A stretch of 64,000 nt of DNA from Candidatus Poseidoniaceae archaeon (GCA_965662895.1 CBFIJH010000001.1:164436-228435), one strand, 5' to 3'. Shown: positions 53,959 through 63,750, numbered from the stretch's first letter. Notes: generated from the letters alone by a model not told the origin. Translations and numbers: made by a program.

Positions 53959-54031
53959 AGCCCGATGGTGTAGTGGTCCATCATGGTGGGTTTTGGTCCC
54001 GCCGACCTCGGTTCGAATCCGAGTCGGGCTA
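53959..54031 (+). tRNA. tRNA-Gln(UUG)
   Basis: Acceptor stem AGCCCGA/TCGGGCT with the A1-U72 pair typical of archaeal tRNA-Gln; anticodon arm GTGGG-TTTTGGT-CCCGC; T-loop GGTTCGAATCC; CCA not encoded. Confidence 0.95.
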
Positions 54032-54079
54032 CTTTCCCACATACGCAACTTCATCAATCGCTTGCGTTTCGACCTTTAC

Positions 54080-55518: not shown

Positions 55519-56958
55519 TCAGTTTTCTGCACCAGGAGTTGGGCCAGTTGTGTATCCCCAAACTCCTGTGTTGTCCATGACGTAGACATCATCGGAAGTA
55601 TCTGGAAGTGCACCTGATCCATGGATAAGGTCACCCGATGAGGTGTACAAAGAAGCAGAATCATCGCCTCCAATGCCGAAGGCAAATTGCGCATCTCCAC
55701 TTGTCGAATCATCATTGCACAGGAGCATGTATTCTCCCGCAGCAAGTGAGGTGCCAGATGCAAACGTGTACTGGTCTTCATCTCCGAATCCTTTGGAGTC
55801 AACAACGACCATGCCAGACAAATCCATAGAGGATGCTCCGTAGTTCCAGATTTCGATCCAGTCTTCGGTGTCTCCACTGCCATCAGAGTTCAAGCAAGTT
55901 CCAGCACTTCCCTTGTTTGCAACTTCGTTGATTACGAGGGTGGTTGCATAACAGTTGTTTGCAGCACCTGGTGTTGAACCGTGTGGTCCCGAAGTTTGGA
56001 CGCCGTTTGAACAATCAAATTCAGTTGAACCTGCTTCGTCTCCAAGTGTGTCGTAGTCCGTTTCAGTGCCATCAGGAGCCCTTAGGTGAACAGTGTCGCC
56101 ACTGCCCTTGATACCAAATCCAAAGACTTGGGAATCAGCACCACTGCATACGCCTTCACAGAACCACATGTAACCGTTCGCGGAAATTGTATCTCCACTC
56201 ACGAAAACGATGCGCTCATCGCACTTGGATGTCCCTACTCCGCCAATGGCGTCACAGTCTTCCTTGACGCCCTTGTCGTAAATTTGGAAACCGTCAAGAT
56301 CGCACTCAGCACCTGAGTTGTGGATTTCAATCCAGTCCTCTGGAGCACCGCCACCATGCATCTCTGAGATGGTGATTGCAGATGCAGTACATGCTGGCGT
56401 GCCTGATGTTGAGCCTCCAGTTGTTCCGCCAGTGTTGCCACCTGTGTTTCCTCCAAGTCCAGCAAGGGTTATTTCTGTGCTTTCATAGATGAGTTTGTTT
56501 GATGCTCGGTCGAGGACCTTCACTTGAATTAAACAGACTCCTCCACCATCGCAAAGGTTGTCTGTTCCTTCGCTAATGGTTACTTCTTCGCCAAAAGTCC
56601 ACTTGCCATCGTTGTTGTCCGTTACTGCACAAACTGTTTCAACAGATTTGCCTGGGTTTGTACACTCCGTGTAGGAACTATCTTCAGCAGAGAGTTGGAC
56701 GACGACAGTCGACCATGAGAGATCTTCACCTGCCTCCATCGATACGTAGGCAAGTGCTTCGCCTGAATCGCTTGACAACGACGTTCCAGAATCCCTGACT
56801 TCGAAGTCATACATCGAGAAGTCACCGTCTGTGTTTCCTTCTGCTAGCTGCGATGCCCAGACGTAGAGTACGCCAGACAACACAACAGTGATTGCAACCA
56901 TCAAAATCGTTGCAATAACTGGGCTAACCGCTTTTTCATTCATTTTCATTTCTTTCAT
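55519..56958 (-). CDS. archaeal type IV pilin (DUF1628-type N-terminus) with two lamin-tail domains
   Basis: Class III signal NEKA|VSPVIATILMVAITVVLSGVLYVW; two LTD repeats (ISEM..EDWIEIHN and INEV..EDWIEIWN..DLSG, each ending TPGA.N). Confidence 0.88.
   Translation of the reverse strand: MKEMKMNEKAVSPVIATILMVAITVVLSGVLYVWASQLAEGNTDGDFSMYDFEVRDSGTSLSSDSGEALAYVSMEAGEDLSWSTVVVQLSAEDSSYTECTNPGKSVETVCAVTDNNDGKWTFGEEVTISEGTDNLCDGGGVCLIQVKVLDRASNKLIYESTEITLAGLGGNTGGNTGGTTGGSTSGTPACTASAITISEMHGGGAPEDWIEIHNSGAECDLDGFQIYDKGVKEDCDAIGGVGTSKCDERIVFVSGDTISANGYMWFCEGVCSGADSQVFGFGIKGSGDTVHLRAPDGTETDYDTLGDEAGSTEFDCSNGVQTSGPHGSTPGAANNCYATTLVINEVANKGSAGTCLNSDGSGDTEDWIEIWNYGASSMDLSGMVVVDSKGFGDEDQYTFASGTSLAAGEYMLLCNDDSTSGDAQFAFGIGGDDSASLYTSSGDLIHGSGALPDTSDDVYVMDNTGVWGYTTGPTPGAEN
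56401..56454 (-). repeat. degenerate 12-bp repeat encoding a GGNTGGNTGGTTGGST linker
   Basis: Low-complexity Gly/Thr linker between the pilin domain and the LTDs. Confidence 0.6.
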
Positions 56959-57103
56959 TTTTGTTCACCTGAGAACTATTTCTCCAAGTCGTCTAAAGAT
57001 TCCTCACATGTTTGGTCTAGAACCATTTATTTTACATATACATATATTGTAGTAATGAGAATAAATAGAATACCATGGCCTAGTAGTAGATTATAGAGAC
57101 AAC
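56959..57103. promoter_or_regulatory. AT-rich divergent promoter region (pilin / pstS operon)
   Basis: TTTATTTTACATATACATATATT TATA-like tract between divergent genes; AGGTGA SD for the pilin. Confidence 0.55.
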
Positions 57104-58282
57104 ATGCCGCAAAATTTGGCCATCACCTCGTGTATGTGCATGATGTTTCTTCTTGCTCCACTTGCAGGTTGCGTCAGTGAAAGCGAAGATAGCGATGCAG
57201 GTGCACGAACCCTTATTGGAGGACAAAATACAGACAGTGCATCCATCAAAATCGCCGGCTCATCCACGGTCTATCCACTCGCCACAGGTTGGATTGAGGA
57301 TTTTACAGAACGAAACCCTGACGTATCAGCGAGTGTTGCACTTGGAGGGTCAGGTGCGGGCGCAGCTGCCGTTTGCAGTACAGGAAACGATCATGTTGAG
57401 ATTGGCTCAATGTCACGCACCTTCAAACCAATCGAGGCAACTCTTGTTGATGGTGAGCGTTTCTTCAATTGCAAATCCTCCGATATCGAGTTAACTCAGG
57501 TTCCCATTGCAATGGATGGAATCACCATTGTCCTCAAACGTGGCGGTGGTGCACAGCAATGCGTCGAATCCATAGGTGGTCTGAGCGTAGCCCAACTGCG
57601 TTGGATTTTTTCTGATTGGACCGAAGACGACCTTGTTTACTCCCAAGAAGGTGGTCTCGAACTATCCAGTATTACTCCAAACAACGATGGGGATGGTGTA
57701 CGAGAATGGTCCGACTTTTCCGAAAATCCGTCCTGTGAAGAATTGAACATTAACCTCTGGGGTCCTGACTCGCAATCTGGAACCTACGAATATTTTGGAG
57801 AAATGATCTTTTGCAAAAAATGCTTCCTTGGAAACTATGGTTATCCTGAAGAATCCTTTGACTCGCAACGGGTAGGTGGCTACCAAAACAGCGCCAATGA
57901 CAACGTCATCATCAACGGTGTGAGTGAAGATGGCGCTGCTATTGGATTCCTAGGCTATTCGTATTATGATGAACACAAATCCGAATTGACTGCAGTGGGT
58001 TTATCGAAAAACATCACACACTCTGCTTTGGATGGAATCGAACCAATAATTCAACCAACCAGTGATTCAATTCGAAGTGAGACGTATCTTCCTCTGTCGC
58101 GTGAAATCTACATGAATGTTGATAATGCATCTTGGAGTACGGTTCTACCGTTTTTTGAGTACGCATTTTCAGACGACGGACAATCAACCATTCTCGAAGT
58201 TGGGTTCGTTCCACTCCCAGAATCGACATTCAATGAAACCATGGCCATACTCAATCTCCACAATTCCGAGGTGGTAGAATGA
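57104..58282 (+). CDS. pstS: phosphate-binding lipoprotein PstS
   Basis: LAGC lipobox, AGSSTVYP, GGSGAG, SMSR, SGTYEYF and YLPLSRE. Confidence 0.9.
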   Translation: MPQNLAITSCMCMMFLLAPLAGCVSESEDSDAGARTLIGGQNTDSASIKIAGSSTVYPLATGWIEDFTERNPDVSASVALGGSGAGAAAVCSTGNDHVEIGSMSRTFKPIEATLVDGERFFNCKSSDIELTQVPIAMDGITIVLKRGGGAQQCVESIGGLSVAQLRWIFSDWTEDDLVYSQEGGLELSSITPNNDGDGVREWSDFSENPSCEELNINLWGPDSQSGTYEYFGEMIFCKKCFLGNYGYPEESFDSQRVGGYQNSANDNVIINGVSEDGAAIGFLGYSYYDEHKSELTAVGLSKNITHSALDGIEPIIQPTSDSIRSETYLPLSREIYMNVDNASWSTVLPFFEYAFSDDGQSTILEVGFVPLPESTFNETMAILNLHNSEVVE

Positions 58283-59289
58283 AAGGTGCGGTATTTGTTG
58301 CCCTGGTTCTGTTGGCTTGTGGACTCGCAGGATGCACGTCTGAGGATGATGCACAATCCACCTACATGACCATCGATATTGTTGATGTACCGCAAAAAAT
58401 TGGGTTTAACAAGCAAGACCAATTGGTGGAGCTTTTGGTTCGTAATCACCCTGACAGTGGATATGAATGGGAAGACCTTTCCGTCGAATTATCGATTTAT
58501 GATGCTGAACAAATGGATGAACCATTGCTAACGGAAGTTTGCCTACCTCCGAGTATTTCCTCTGCTGAGGCGATAGAAGGAAGCGGTCCAGCAAACGTTC
58601 GAATTAACGAGCTCATGGCGAGTAACGATTTCGGTTATCCAGATCCTGATGACAGTGGAGATGCTTACGATGATTGGATTGAATTGTTCAATCCTGGTGC
58701 AGAGGCGATGTCTCTCGAAGGTTGGGTCATGACCGATGCTTATGAAGAGTACATTGCTGGTGGAAAATCTGGCCACACCTTTGACCAGACCGTTTCCATT
58801 CCTGCTGGAGGTTTTCTCATCGTATGGGCCGATGATGAATCCGAGCAAGGTCCTGTTCACATGAATTTCAAACTGAAATCTGAGGGTGAGACCGTGTCCT
58901 TGATCAATCCTCAAGGCGAGGTGCATCAAAATATTTCATGGGGTGCTCAAACCACAGATACTTCCTACACTGCTGTTCCTGATGGTTCAATCAATTTCCA
59001 AGTCGATCGCACTCCGACTCCAATGCGAACCAATGGTGTGATGTCAGGCGAGAACATTCGTCCTGAATCAGCTCCAGGTTCCATGGGTACTGGATGTATG
59101 ATTAGCCAATCCATCGACGACGAATTCTGGCACGCTGATGAGACAGTTACACTCATCGAAGATGGTGTGAGCCTCTGTGGCGTGCATGATTCATCCTCCA
59201 ATGCATTCCCCATCTGCTACATACGATTGATCATCTCACACGATTCGCATATTGTACTTTACAACGATGGTTTAATTGGTTTAACGTGA
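58279..59289 (+). CDS. lipoprotein with lamin-tail domain
   Basis: LAGC; RINELMA..DDWIELFN..SLEGW..TPTP.RTN. Confidence 0.82.
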   Translation: MKGAVFVALVLLACGLAGCTSEDDAQSTYMTIDIVDVPQKIGFNKQDQLVELLVRNHPDSGYEWEDLSVELSIYDAEQMDEPLLTEVCLPPSISSAEAIEGSGPANVRINELMASNDFGYPDPDDSGDAYDDWIELFNPGAEAMSLEGWVMTDAYEEYIAGGKSGHTFDQTVSIPAGGFLIVWADDESEQGPVHMNFKLKSEGETVSLINPQGEVHQNISWGAQTTDTSYTAVPDGSINFQVDRTPTPMRTNGVMSGENIRPESAPGSMGTGCMISQSIDDEFWHADETVTLIEDGVSLCGVHDSSSNAFPICYIRLIISHDSHIVLYNDGLIGLT

Positions 59290-59298
59290 GGTGAAATT

Positions 59299-62200
59299 AT
59301 GAAAAATAAAGCATTCTTCCTGATACTTGTAATGACGTTGTCACTCTTCGCTGGTTGCTTCGGCGGAGATAGTGAAACCAATGAAGAACCAATCTACGAA
59401 GCATACGAATGTCGGATTGAAGAAGACAATACCTCATTGTGGTGCACCCAAGAGCGTGGAGTAGCCAAGTTGCCGATGGTCGTCGAATCAGGCTACATCA
59501 CATCGTGTGTTTTCGGGGCAATGGACGAGGAAGGGGACACGAAACTAACTTGCAACGGAATCAGTGCAACGATCGAAACCTATCCTGTTGGAGAACGTAT
59601 TCGACATCTCGATAACAATTGTCGCTTGGCTCTCCTTGCCAATGGAGAAAGTATTGTTTCGTGCTCTAATGGATGGCAAGCTCGGCTCGCATCTTCCGCG
59701 AATGCTTGCGTTCGTATTTTGGAAGATACAAGCGAAAAGGGCGTGTATGAACGAGCAAGTTGCAACGGTCTTGACATCAATTACGGCGCTCCCAATTCGG
59801 GAGTCACCATTCAGGCCAACCTTCTCGGAATGTATGACCACGATGCAGGGACCTTCGGAACATTGGAAATTCCAGCATATGACCCAGTTACGCAACGAAT
59901 TTTCCTCGTCAACGTTCTTGAGAAATCTGTTGATATTGTCTCGATAGCTGATCCCAGTGACCCTCAACTCGTCGGTCGAGTTGACCTATCAAAGATTGGA
60001 GAACCCAACAGCATTGATATTCGGCCAAGTGACGGACTACTCGCTATAGCAGTTCACAGAGAGACAGACGTCTTGAATTATGAGGATGGTCCACTCCCGT
60101 TTGTTGTTACAAAGGATCGACCTGACACAGGACTGGTCTATTTTATGGACACAGACGGGCAACGGTTGAACATCGTGGATGATGTGGGCTACCAACCTGA
60201 TATGATTACATTCACGCCTGACGGAAACAAGGTTTTGGTTGCAAACGAAGGGCAGCCATCTACTGATTACAAATTCGATCCAGAGGGGTCGGTCGACATC
60301 ATCGACGTAAGTGGACCAATCTCAGACGTCGGTGAGGAGCATGTCACCCATGTCACATTTCATGCGTTTGAAGAGGACAAGTCATCCTTGATACAAATGG
60401 GCATTCGAATCAACGGACCAGGTGCAAATTTGAGCATGGATTTTGAGCCAGAATACATTACTGTATCCCCAGATTCTTTGACGGCCTATGTGGCGATTCA
60501 AGAGGCAAACGCCATTGCAGTTCTCGATGTCGAAGCGGGACAATTTACCGAAATTATGCCAATGGGATACAAACCTCATTCCTCTGGTGCAGCAGTCCAC
60601 ACATCCCTGACCTGGGCCGACGCACAAATAACCGACACATCCGGTTGGATGTTCCTTGGTGAAGACGCAACACTTGGAACAGAGGTATACTTGATGCTAT
60701 CAGATGCCTCAAACGAGTTGCACCTTGTCGATTACAATCCGGCAACAGAGACGTTGTCCATGAGAGCAAATCCGTTGGTTACACTCTCCAGCGAGGCTGA
60801 TTTCGAAGATCTTGCCGTCTGTGAGTATGATGGTCTGAATGCATTTATCCTCGCAGAAGAGTCAATCCCATCCTTGCAATTCTTCGATGGCGAGGGAAGT
60901 CAAATTACACGACTTGTTCCTGAAAATTCTTCCTTTACGTTGGCTGGCGATCACGCTATTCTTCCCTCTGCCATATCGGATATTGAAACCAACAAAGGTT
61001 TCGAGAGCGTTGCATGCTTCGGCAACCACCTCTACACAATGACGCAATCCTCACTCAGTACAGCCGGTTCAACCGAGCAATGGATACGACTACTCGACAT
61101 CAACATCGACACCATGACACTTGAGGGCCAATACCTCTACCCAGTCGAATTGACCGATGGGGCCTACTCCCGTGGAGGTAAGATGGACAAAGTCACGTCA
61201 ATGGTTGCCATCGGTGAAGGTGAGCTTCTCGTCATTGAACGTGATTCTTCCACCGGTGATTCGGCAAGCAAGTGGGTCTTCAGAGTGGACCTATCGCAGG
61301 GAACAAACCTGATGGATTTGGATGAAAGTATGCGAGCATCAGGCGTACTCGAACAAATGAGTATGAATGAATTCACTGACATTGAAGTCGACACACCCGA
61401 TGTTGATCTCTCTCAAACCCTGATCGAAGACCGCATACTCATAAACGAACTCGCCAGCAAAGTCTCCCTTGGGCCCCCAAACCCATATTTGGACGGTGCT
61501 ACAGACTCGGATTACATTGAATTGTACAACCCGACAAATGCGGATATCGATCTCTCTGGTTGGAGAATATACGACGACATTAGCAAAGCATACACCTTCC
61601 CGGACGGTTCGAGTATCGGGCCAATGTCCTACCTCTTGCTGTTCGCTGATGACACGAACGATGGAACGCAGGATTGGGATGTAACCATCGATGAAAATGG
61701 AGCCCATCACCTTCCAATCAAATTGTCATCGGGGGGTGAAAGTGTAACCTTGGAAGACAACAATCAGGTCGTTGTTGAAAACATTATCTTCCCTGCTTTA
61801 AGCCAAGACACCTCCTATGGCCGCTTGATAACGGCCTCTTCTGTCTTCGGAGTCACTGAACTGACTCCACTTGAGGAGAACGTGGAATACGTCGGAGGCG
61901 AAGGTGGCCCATCGGCTGCCAGTCAAGGAATCAAACCCGTGCTAAAATCTCCCTTTGTTGAATTGGCTGATCGATACGGTGCAAAGCCAGAAGCGCTGAC
62001 CATTGTTGCTGGCTCGATCCAAGGAGCCTTCATCTCTGGTGTCTCCTCTGACCTGTCATTGAATCAACAACTCTCCCTTGATACTGCAAACTACAATGCG
62101 TTCTCTCAAGGGGATACGGTCAACGAGTCAACAATGAATCAACTTGAAGGAAGTGGACTCGATTATTGCTCATTCCACGATGCGTTCACATTTGCCAACG

Positions 62201-63750
62201 ACGGAGGCGAAGTGTTCCTCGTCGATGGAAATGATGGTCAAGTCTTGGACGTATACAGTCTAGCGAATGCTGATTTTGAAGGCGTCACATGCGATGATGA
62301 AGGAAGAATTTATGTCGCAAATGAAGCAACAACCCAAATCCATGTGCTTGAATACGCTACCGATTTTAGCCTCATTGGAACATTGAATCTTGAGAATCTA
62401 TCCGTGGATTTGGATGATGGTAAAGGATTGGAATCTGTGAGTTATGTTGCATCTTCGCAAGCACCGAGTATGTGGCCAGCATCGACCGAAGGTTACCTCA
62501 TTGCTGGAAGTCAGGATGCAACTGCAGTCAACGTTTACTCCATACCGGCTAGCATGAGTGGTGAGGTCGATTTGCAAGCAGTTGCATCCATTGAACTCAC
62601 CCTCAACGACGTTGCTGGACTGGATGTTGCAAATGATCTCATCTTTTCATTGCATGATAGCCATGATACTGTTCGAGTTCATGATTTGGAGGGGAACTTT
62701 ATCGCATCGTATGCAACACCACCGACATTGCAAGACACGGAAGGTATCGATGTACAATTTGATTGCACAAACCAAACAATGGAGATTGCATTTGCAGATG
62801 ATGAATTCAGTGACTTCTTCATTGCAACACTTGGCGGTTCGATATGTGTATCGCAAACGACGACGGAAATCGAGCTCCTCGATTTCATCAAAGAAGAACC
62901 TCCGTTTGAATTCGATATGACTGGTGAATTGCGATTGGGGATTCTCACCGATGCAGGTGGAACTGCTACGAGCATACCGTTCGGCTTTGTTGATATCAGG
63001 CTCCATCCACTGGATGGTAGCGATGAAGACGGTTACAATCCATTCCCTTGGCCTGTTATGGCCCTTTACATGCCGGATGGGATCACATCGTACACTGTGG
63101 ATGGGGAAATGTACCTGATCACTGGAAACGAAGGTGACCTTCGCGATTACCGTTACTTCAACAGCTCATCTGGTATGAATGTCATCGGGCATAATGAAGA
63201 AATTCGAATTGCATCGACAACCCTCGACCCGATGCGATTCCCTGATGCGAATTCGATGCAACAAATGAGTCAACTCGGTCGACTTAATGTTCCCAACAAC
63301 TGTGGTGATTCTGATGCTGATGGTGACCTCGACTTCATATGTGCTGTAGGTGCTCGTTCCTTCTCCATCTGGACCACAGATATGGAAATGGTATGGGACA
63401 GTGGCCACGACCTTTCATACTACTCAACGAAAAATGGGCAGCATCGAATAGATGAAATGAATTCTCGAGACGATAACAAAGGAATCGAACCAGAAGGTGT
63501 AAGAGTCGGTGTTATCGATGACAGGACCTATCTTTTCGTTTCCATGGAACGCAGTTTTGGCGTCATGATCTATGACATCTCAAATCCCCATCAACCAACA
63601 TTCCAACAATGGATTCAAGTTGACGGCGCAACAAATCCGGAAGATATGGAATTCATTCCGGCTGAGATATCACCAACGTCGTCTCCATTGCTTGTTGTGG
63701 CCAACGAGGATTCTGGAACTGTCGGCATTTGGGAGTTAGCCCTCTTGTAG
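59299..63750 (+). CDS. large multidomain lipoprotein: choice-of-anchor I, phytase-like, LTD and additional propeller domains
   Basis: FAGC; PDMITFTPDG..VANEGQP, FEPEYI, YMPDGI, GNEGD, RDDNKGIEPEG; NKGFES and LVIERD (phytase-like); LTD. Confidence 0.85.
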   Translation: MKNKAFFLILVMTLSLFAGCFGGDSETNEEPIYEAYECRIEEDNTSLWCTQERGVAKLPMVVESGYITSCVFGAMDEEGDTKLTCNGISATIETYPVGERIRHLDNNCRLALLANGESIVSCSNGWQARLASSANACVRILEDTSEKGVYERASCNGLDINYGAPNSGVTIQANLLGMYDHDAGTFGTLEIPAYDPVTQRIFLVNVLEKSVDIVSIADPSDPQLVGRVDLSKIGEPNSIDIRPSDGLLAIAVHRETDVLNYEDGPLPFVVTKDRPDTGLVYFMDTDGQRLNIVDDVGYQPDMITFTPDGNKVLVANEGQPSTDYKFDPEGSVDIIDVSGPISDVGEEHVTHVTFHAFEEDKSSLIQMGIRINGPGANLSMDFEPEYITVSPDSLTAYVAIQEANAIAVLDVEAGQFTEIMPMGYKPHSSGAAVHTSLTWADAQITDTSGWMFLGEDATLGTEVYLMLSDASNELHLVDYNPATETLSMRANPLVTLSSEADFEDLAVCEYDGLNAFILAEESIPSLQFFDGEGSQITRLVPENSSFTLAGDHAILPSAISDIETNKGFESVACFGNHLYTMTQSSLSTAGSTEQWIRLLDINIDTMTLEGQYLYPVELTDGAYSRGGKMDKVTSMVAIGEGELLVIERDSSTGDSASKWVFRVDLSQGTNLMDLDESMRASGVLEQMSMNEFTDIEVDTPDVDLSQTLIEDRILINELASKVSLGPPNPYLDGATDSDYIELYNPTNADIDLSGWRIYDDISKAYTFPDGSSIGPMSYLLLFADDTNDGTQDWDVTIDENGAHHLPIKLSSGGESVTLEDNNQVVVENIIFPALSQDTSYGRLITASSVFGVTELTPLEENVEYVGGEGGPSAASQGIKPVLKSPFVELADRYGAKPEALTIVAGSIQGAFISGVSSDLSLNQQLSLDTANYNAFSQGDTVNESTMNQLEGSGLDYCSFHDAFTFANDGGEVFLVDGNDGQVLDVYSLANADFEGVTCDDEGRIYVANEATTQIHVLEYATDFSLIGTLNLENLSVDLDDGKGLESVSYVASSQAPSMWPASTEGYLIAGSQDATAVNVYSIPASMSGEVDLQAVASIELTLNDVAGLDVANDLIFSLHDSHDTVRVHDLEGNFIASYATPPTLQDTEGIDVQFDCTNQTMEIAFADDEFSDFFIATLGGSICVSQTTTEIELLDFIKEEPPFEFDMTGELRLGILTDAGGTATSIPFGFVDIRLHPLDGSDEDGYNPFPWPVMALYMPDGITSYTVDGEMYLITGNEGDLRDYRYFNSSSGMNVIGHNEEIRIASTTLDPMRFPDANSMQQMSQLGRLNVPNNCGDSDADGDLDFICAVGARSFSIWTTDMEMVWDSGHDLSYYSTKNGQHRIDEMNSRDDNKGIEPEGVRVGVIDDRTYLFVSMERSFGVMIYDISNPHQPTFQQWIQVDGATNPEDMEFIPAEISPTSSPLLVVANEDSGTVGIWELALL

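Follow-up and report, generated by a model that had tools for sequence, protein, structure and literature searches.

A candidate phosphorus-scavenging surface module with lamin-tail domains in marine group II archaea

In the Sulfolobus bindosome (Bas), a pilin-type N-terminus bears a non-pilin head, and the genes lie beside transporter or nutrient genes, not beside filament assembly genes; the concept was recently generalized, as the accessible part of that paper sets out (PMC13705601). Here, we describe a locus of similar design in a Candidatus Poseidoniaceae archaeon (GCA_965662895.1), in which four genes fill positions 55519–63750 of the window, that is, of the whole 64,000-nucleotide stretch analyzed, which is the final 64 kb of contig C1 (CBFIJH010000001.1:164436-228435) in a 1.86 Mb genome of 26 contigs that is 92% complete. 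The genes encode a pilin-type protein with two lamin-tail domains (LTDs), a PstS-family lipoprotein, an LTD lipoprotein, and a giant lipoprotein of nested beta-propellers. We read the island as an accessory, patchy phosphorus-scavenging surface module of marine group II archaea with a bindosome-like design, and we give this reading a probability of roughly 0.6. Marine group II archaea abound in surface oceans, and with none in culture, their phosphorus acquisition is known only from gene lists.

As far as the accessible text of the sources goes, the locus shares both bindosome features named above. It differs in the head, which consists of two LTDs, in the conserved globular scaffold between helix and head, and in the substrate, which would be phosphorus and not sugar. 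Relatives encode true pilin–PstS fusions (P0088, P0169, P0185, and P0188), whereas the PstS of the window has a lipobox instead. Within the available text of the generalizing paper, the terms Poseidoni, lamin, PstS, and phosphate are absent. The flexible genomic islands that marine bacteria have for phosphate, as presented in the accessible part of the HIMB59 report (PMC10734472), are likewise patchy sets of phosphorus-acquisition genes that vary among strains or species, but ours belongs to an archaeal lineage and has other gene content. The PstS-rich appendages of Pseudomonas aeruginosa, in the accessible part of their description (PMC2242829), also place a phosphate-binding protein on appendage-like surface structures; they are bacterial, contain neither a pilin fusion nor an LTD, and are likened to our locus by description, not by homology. 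On this comparison, the module appears closest in design to the bindosome concept and also near the phosphate genomic islands of marine bacteria. An earlier note on this DNA, made from the sequence alone, had known of no such module, and we likewise found no description of an LTD pilin or of such an operon in the open-access literature searched, where a Halorubrum biofilm proteome is the one paper to combine “lamin tail” with “pilin,” without describing such a protein; nor did we find, in that literature, work on Poseidoniales that treats the module. Its proposed purpose, phosphorus scavenging, is ordinary, and its parts are unusual.

Gene order, conservation, and neighborhood

The earlier note had described a divergon in which an LTD-bearing type IV pilin stands opposite an operon of three lipoproteins, and this arrangement was confirmed: four intact open reading frames fill the interval given there. 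The pilin-type gene (55519..56958, 479 amino acids [aa]) is on the minus strand. On the plus strand follow the genes of the solo PstS-family lipoprotein (57104..58282, 392 aa, lipobox LAGC), the LTD lipoprotein (58279..59289, 336 aa, lipobox LAGC), and the giant (59299..63750, 1483 aa, lipobox FAGC), and contig C1 stops 250 bp 3′ of the last. The pstS stop codon overlaps the start of the lipoprotein gene (ATGA), and only 10 nt separate the stop of the lipoprotein gene from the start of the giant gene; the operon is tightly coupled. The lipoboxes are kept in the orthologs, except for one lipoprotein ortholog with a plain membrane anchor. Between the pilin gene and pstS lies a divergent intergenic region of 145 bp (56959..57103) with a central AT-rich block, presumably a shared promoter region; the corresponding gap measures 148 bp in locus L003, 122 bp in L007, and 113 bp in L010. 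Gaps this short (113–148 bp in the four loci) would allow joint control of the two transcription units. AT-rich blocks and short inverted repeats were seen by eye in these gaps and in the region upstream of the pst operon, an impression without statistics on which we base no claim.

A first sampling found the full-length giant in 3 of the genus’s 24 other species and in no genome among 16 taken from other families. A profile search recovered the full-length LTD lipoprotein from 10 of the 401 genomes of the order, spread over four genera and two families. The giant adjoins this lipoprotein at all 10 loci (in three, it is shorter or truncated by a contig end). PstS is a neighbor at all 9 loci whose contig extends to it, and so is the LTD pilin at all 6 that reach its position, with pilin identities of 39–82%. 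The pilin gene is divergent from pstS in five loci; in L011, which belongs to the other family, it lies downstream of the giant on the same strand and encodes a single LTD. The lowest identities to the window proteins are 39–44% for the pilin, 48% for the lipoprotein, 43% for the giant, and 60% for PstS. Conversely, the outer flanks of the module differ among loci: nucleotide similarity to genome G023 breaks off some 115 bp after the pilin stop, beyond which G023 has PhoX and the window a SnoaL-like gene. The synteny thus bears out the co-distribution of the pilin with pstS that the earlier note had expected, with variable flanks around a constant core, and supports the view that the four genes behave as one unit.

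In relatives, this unit adjoins genes of phosphorus acquisition. In L003, PhoX is the next gene after the pilin and has the same orientation (E = 1e-32), a PhoA-type phosphatase lipoprotein lies two genes away in L011 (E = 1e-40), and a 5′-nucleotidase lipoprotein lies three genes beyond the giant in L002. In L007 and L010, both of genus g12, a glycosyltransferase and a metallophosphoesterase lie beyond the pilin, followed by pstB and pstA at about 2 kb from it and about 2–3 kb from the module. Because the genes stay together and adjoin phosphorus-acquisition genes in relatives, the island most likely harvests phosphorus at the cell surface, and on this sequence evidence we regard a role in phosphorus acquisition as quite probable.

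The same genes could instead serve adhesion or particle attachment, with the LTDs and the giant acting as adhesins or lectins on pilus and lipid anchors and PstS a mere neighbor in a variable surface-protein region. Such a role would suit the choice-of-anchor-I (COA-I) domain of the giant, which is defined as a surface-anchored domain and equated with the MSP130 cell-surface domain; it would also suit the fold matches, all of them generic and mostly non-enzymatic propellers, and the pilin scaffold, which elsewhere bears thrombospondin-type and LDL-A heads. However, PstS stands in the operon at 9 of 9 loci with overlapping stop and start codons, four different neighborhoods contain phosphatases, a nucleotidase, or pst genes, and phosphoesterase fusions occur in 26 of the 120 giant homologs among the matches listed. 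We therefore consider adhesion an unlikely main function.

Two features of the surroundings are recorded here in their own right. A tRNA-Gln gene at window positions 53959–54032, 1.5 kb past the pilin end of the island, could mark a site of integration, and no integrase was seen. The glycosyltransferase–metallophosphoesterase pair of genus g12 sits between pstB and the LTD pilin (L010:14917-16901 and L007:8157-10141). This pair may be comparable to the PlcP–Agt lipid-remodeling pair of phosphorus-starved marine bacteria.

The nested-propeller protein

The giant lipoprotein is built around a COA-I propeller in two halves. The Pfam family choice_anch_I (PF22494, E = 2.5e-97) matches both, with its best stretch at residues 174–436 (59818..60606, plus strand), and NCBIfam, which scores the protein at 434 bits against a cut-off of 300 (NF038117), places the C-terminal half at residues ~1227–1470; this half lies at 63007..63735 on the same strand. 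Nested between the halves, Pfam finds a Phytase-like domain (PF13449) at residues 497–675 (60787..61323; 104 bits against a cut-off of 27.6), an LTD at 732–826 (61492..61776; PF00932), and an SdiA-regulated-like propeller stretch at 952–1054 (62152..62460), all on the plus strand. Bacterial homologs of ~930–1050 aa found by BLAST carry the COA-I N-half, the phytase-like domain, and the COA-I C-half in the same order, with 29–44% identity to the giant over the aligned pieces. Because the order is the same, the COA-I/phytase-like nesting must be old and widespread. The archaeal lineage added the LTD, some 300–400 further residues inside the nesting, and a Cys-rich N-terminal region. The L011 variant (1189 aa) is without a segment of ~300 aa that includes the SdiA-regulated-like stretch.

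Among the matches listed for the giant, the full archaeal architecture occurs in only four clusters, and an LTD in 10 of 120 homologs. The phosphoesterase fusions mentioned above involve 5′-nucleotidase, PhoD, EEP, metallophosphoesterase, and beta-propeller phytase domains, and hemolysin-type Ca-binding and Calx-beta domains are also frequent fusion partners in this set. In the protein atlas, bacterial architectures that combine an LTD with COA-I or with a phytase-like domain recur. An alignment of 55 sequences from archaea and bacteria has 56 invariant columns, many of which hold Asp, Glu, or Asn, and the giant keeps every invariant residue.

We modeled the 1189-aa relative from L011 with 55 sequences (predicted local distance difference test [pLDDT], 78; predicted template modeling score [pTM], 0.75). 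Its residues 173..1189 align to seven-bladed propellers over ~290–300 residues (VIA-align; Z ~30, root-mean-square deviation 2.3–2.5), which confirms, for this relative of the window protein, that the COA-I halves close around the insertion as one propeller. Structure modeling, which the earlier note had recommended, thus succeeded in resolving the relative of the giant as a seven-bladed COA-I propeller, but the model of the LTD lipoprotein was too poor to use and the fold matches are silent on chemistry.

A member of the bacterial group, Nodularia NSP_RS03145, is annotated as an “atypical alkaline phosphatase” and is induced by phosphorus limitation (PMC9846622). The giant shares with these bacterial COA-I and phytase-like proteins, the Nodularia one included, the nested order and the family-invariant residues; it differs from them in its Cys-rich N-terminus, its LTD, a further propeller-like segment inside the insertion, and its lipobox anchor. 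COA-I rings are also present in the Synechococcus elongatus control genome. Going by annotation, COA-I may correspond to the atypical PhoA (PhoAaty) of strain PCC 7942. In the accessible part of the report on PhoAaty, its BLAST matches are said to include “marine animals” (PMC4548154). We put the chances that the giant itself is the hydrolase at about even.

The propellers could also be used for mineral or polymeric inorganic phosphorus: Ca-binding propellers and LTDs would bind calcium phosphate or polyphosphate–cation granules, and PstS would strip phosphate from them without ester hydrolysis. This would agree with the conserved predicted Ca-binding sites of COA-I proteins and their tie to animal calcification (PMC11878542, in its accessible part), with the many invariant acidic residues, and with the frequent fusion to hemolysin-type Ca-binding and Calx-beta domains among the matches listed. 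Conversely, no prokaryotic member offers evidence of mineral binding, and the fusions to nucleotidase, PhoD, and EEP domains point to ester substrates, as does a member of the phytase-like family that is called an “atypical alkaline phosphatase” and is induced under phosphorus limitation. Mineral capture is accordingly quite improbable in our view.

A second COA-I protein was noticed on contig C6:1-2727 of the window genome (G000; locus L004) and in L005. It contains two COA-I propellers in tandem, neither of them interrupted, together with a collagen repeat and DUF7151, and 4 or 5 of the genus’s 24 other species gave matches to it.

Lamin-tail domains and the proposed cargo pilin

Four LTD copies are distributed over three of the four genes, as the earlier note had counted, and all match PF00932. 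In addition to the LTD of the giant, one lies in the lipoprotein at residues 103–222 (58585..58944, plus strand; 63.6 bits, E = 1.3e-16) and two lie in the pilin, which Pfam matches in two stretches (E = 2.6e-22): LTD 1 (56056..56388, minus strand) reaches 31.5 bits, below the single-domain cut-off of 34.3, and LTD 2 (55621..55944, minus strand) reaches 52.9 bits. The whole genome holds 12 LTD matches in 6 frames. Since 4 of the 12, in 3 frames, fall within the 8.2 kb of the module in a genome of 1.86 Mb, their clustering is not due to chance. When all 12 domains were compared with one another by BLAST, the module’s four LTDs were each other’s best matches and stood apart from the six LTDs that a 1629-aa protein of contig C4 carries; the module therefore has its own LTD subtype. 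Only four full-length homolog clusters of the LTD lipoprotein were found. The other LTD proteins of the genome are secreted hydrolases, one combining six LTDs with two PLD-like domains and another an LTD with an amidohydrolase domain.

LTDs accompany membrane-associated hydrolases elsewhere, and the ExeM nuclease is slower in vitro without its LTD, according to the accessible part of its description (PMC6085458). The accessible text on Haloferax presents Hvo_1477 as a lipoprotein with a thermonuclease domain and an LTD that is indispensable for growth with DNA as phosphorus source (PMC3929857), and that on sediment bacteria reports LTDs in DNA-degradation loci (PMC8289736). Hvo_1477 and Shewanella ExeM, so described, resemble our module as surface-anchored LTD proteins that exploit extracellular DNA, in Haloferax for phosphorus, but they have a recognized nuclease domain, whereas the module has none. 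By analogy, these observations are in keeping with LTDs that bind or tether next to enzymes that cleave phosphodiesters, without naming the ligand. In a phosphorus-scavenging module, the four module-specific LTDs would all hold the same ligand, for which a polymer rich in phosphate (nucleic acid, for example) or the cell envelope is the most plausible candidate.

If that ligand is DNA, it might be taken up as genetic material and not for its phosphorus, with the LTD pilin binding DNA like the bacterial DNA-receptor pilins in a competence-like process. The pilin context would suit such uptake, as would the extracellular nucleases and ComEC-like metallo-beta-lactamase proteins that LTDs accompany in archaea and bacteria, as far as the accessible sources describe them. 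However, none of the ten loci shows a nuclease, a ComEC-like channel, or a DNA-processing gene, and the conserved partner is a phosphate-binding protein, so that we hold DNA uptake to be hardly probable at all beside phosphorus scavenging.

Two further LTD proteins of the window genome lie outside the module. The 1629-aa secreted protein with six LTDs and two PLDc_2 domains is encoded at contig C4:80032-84921 (L029); frames of ~1.5–1.8 kaa with LTD matches occur in most genomes of the order, and the C4 protein may be the main LTD-bearing phosphodiesterase of the group. At contig C11:9961-11928 (L028), a KaiC/RecA-like gene comes after the gene of a 378-aa membrane protein whose LTD is weak.

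The pilin consists of a class III signal peptide plus a transmembrane or filament helix (residues 1–42, 56833..56958; from Pfam, NCBIfam, and homolog alignment), a pilin-type globular scaffold domain (residues 43–168, 56455..56832; from the homolog profile), a Gly/Thr linker, and the two LTDs, all on the minus strand. Its N-terminus matches Pilin_N (PF07790, E = 3.5e-8) and TIGR02537 (arch_flag_Nterm, 48.4 bits against a cut-off of 20), and the N-terminal helix motif is invariant across 14 aligned homologs. As judged by its sequence, it is an archaeal class III signal peptide, type IV pilin-like protein. The search returned 293 homologs, of which the best 120 were listed. Among these, the N-terminal ~170 residues, which comprise signal peptide, helix, and globular domain, recur at 45–70% identity under varying C-terminal heads: two LTDs in the orthologs, a complete PstS in the four fusions named above, or thrombospondin-type repeats with a membrane anchor. 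P0088 is 70% identical to the pilin over its first third, that is, helix and scaffold. Of the order’s 401 genomes, 3 encode a full-length pilin–PstS fusion, as a gene on its own whose surroundings are unrelated, and two of these three genomes (G021 and G123) also hold the module. The globular domain alone closes many lipobox proteins among the matches listed, some of them with LDL-A modules; in 114 homologs, it is C-terminal in 68, behind the pilin helix in 45, and internal in one. Its family is small: out of 1.84 billion proteins, 136 representative clusters reach E ≤ 1e-3. The homologs that are named by source come from Candidatus Poseidoniaceae, which agrees with the marine group II origin that the earlier note had in mind. 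Thus, the protein may be viewed as a “cargo pilin,” a conserved scaffold with exchangeable heads (two LTDs here, PstS in relatives). The swap of LTDs against PstS on one scaffold would then be natural evidence for the view, proposed recently, that archaeal type IV filaments are functionalized for nutrient capture.

The earlier note had also suggested that two of the genes share a pilin-type globular domain, which held for one half of the domain. By plain BLASTP, only the LTDs of the pilin and the lipoprotein match, and the globular parts reach E = 0.27. With hhalign, the pilin globular-domain profile (114 homologs) and the lipoprotein family alignment (5 sequences) match over the last 50–70 residues of both proteins with a probability of 96–97% (E = 5e-9 to 1e-10), so that lipoprotein residues 252–336 (59032..59286, plus strand) are homologous to the C-terminal half of the domain; the N-terminal halves are co-linear, but not significantly so (E = 0.065). 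The lipoprotein model (5 sequences; mean pLDDT 50.7, pTM 0.37) is too poor to judge whether its LTD is inserted in a pilin-like sandwich. Complex prediction for pilin residues 44–479 with lipoprotein residues 24–336 scored 0.00 in both runs and, made without controls, says nothing either way.

The genome contains four T2SSE and five T2SSF matches, which form three type IV filament ATPase/platform pairs on contigs C8, C3, and C7. The cargo pilin may be displayed through such a type IV filament route, as in the bindosome; on its sequence features, incorporation into a filament is possible and somewhat doubtful. Two metatranscriptome runs of one sample contain contigs that cover the pilin gene at 55835–56948 with ~92% identity and word depths of 36 and 144, and the operon in short pieces. 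Being contigs from RNA libraries, they give no proof of transcription and no ranking of the genes and are silent on phosphate, and we do not use them as support.

Another frame of the genome resembles the pilin in part. On contig C9:76176-84476, a 2766-aa open frame encodes a giant surface protein with a C-terminal membrane anchor and continues, without a change of frame, into a pilin-type N-terminus, which shares 88% identity with the LTD pilin over 34 residues; the frame may represent two genes or a fusion.

PstS and the proposed route of phosphorus

The PstS of the module passes the Pfam cut-off for PBP_like_2 (E = 1.5e-19), keeps the motifs GSST, GGSG, and SGTYEYF, and is 40–44% identical to each of the three PstS domains encoded in the pst operon of contig C2. 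Together with the other proteins, it suggests the following route. Three lipid-anchored proteins and one pilin-type-anchored protein would be displayed outside the membrane. The giant, a COA-I propeller with a nested phytase-like domain, would free phosphate from organic or polymeric phosphorus, and the PstS paralog would capture the freed phosphate and hand it to PstCAB encoded elsewhere in the genome. In its most elaborate form, the module would be a phosphorus-harvesting filament or surface lattice of cargo pilins, in which LTD heads catch polymers rich in phosphate (extracellular nucleic acid, for instance), PstS heads, those of relatives, catch freed phosphate, and the lipid-anchored propeller enzyme hydrolyzes, in short, a phosphate bindosome; we regard this form as speculative and rather unlikely.

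Several observations weigh against the phosphorus-scavenging reading. The earlier note had called the giant phosphatase-like, a label that is based on family names. PhoX (PF05787), PhoD (PF09423), PhoA (PF00245), beta-propeller phytase (PF02333), and metallophosphoesterase domains had no match in the four proteins at E ≤ 0.01. In the fused bacterial proteins, catalysis could sit entirely in the partner domains. COA-I is the MSP130 domain of animal biomineralization, described in the accessible part of PMC11878542 as of unknown function with predicted Ca sites, and that text does not mention phosphatase. A Foldseek search of the PDB with the 1189-aa model matched nothing but generic multi-propeller proteins (TM score, 0.08–0.19), and sequence and profile searches of the PDB returned only a Methanosarcina S-layer YVTN propeller and weaker matches, with no close solved relative. 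No filament assembly genes lie beside the pilin, and the prepilin peptidase family PF01478 had no match in the 92% complete genome, with other peptidase families not searched. As for PstS, the protein falls below the curated NCBIfam cut-offs (TIGR02136, 146 bits against 206.6; TIGR00975, 31 against 205), and since it passes that of PBP_like_2, it is a divergent PstS-family member and not an equivalog. Its residues 101–105 (window positions 57404–57418) read G-S-M-S-R in 5 of 5 module orthologs against G-D-M-S-R in canonical domains, and the Ser-for-Asp change could mean an altered ligand preference. The pstCAB genes of the window genome are on another contig, C2. Furthermore, the module is rare (10 of 401 genomes), and the ten loci represent about four divergent lineages, which are kin and not independent.

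The earlier note had envisaged a co-regulated surface or pilus-associated apparatus that captures organic phosphorus or particles, hydrolyzes it, and passes phosphate to PstS. Its link to phosphorus stood, through the PstS gene in the operon, the PhoX, PhoA, 5′-nucleotidase, and pst neighbors, and the pilin–PstS fusions, whereas catalysis, co-regulation, the pilus, and particle capture are still proposals. As a phosphorus-scavenging module, the island ties prokaryotic LTDs, the COA-I/MSP130 propeller, and class III signal cargo proteins to one testable role and could serve to assign functions to three orphan domain families. A phosphate bindosome, if true, would give the first defined prokaryotic function for LTDs and COA-I domains. 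The proteins also form a compact set for the biochemistry of a possibly widespread “atypical alkaline phosphatase” family. As a rare accessory trait, found in ~2.5% of the sampled species genomes, the module could mark adaptation to low-phosphate water.

The canonical pst operon at contig C2:38489-49332 is itself unusual. One lipoprotein of 1075 aa contains three PstS domains in tandem, very large extra domains enlarge PstC (813 aa) and PstA (1275 aa), and PstB (434 aa) has an acidic N-terminal extension; upstream, in divergent orientation, is an AbrB–PhoU-type regulator. Relatives also have frames of 1076–1416 aa with three or four PstS domains.

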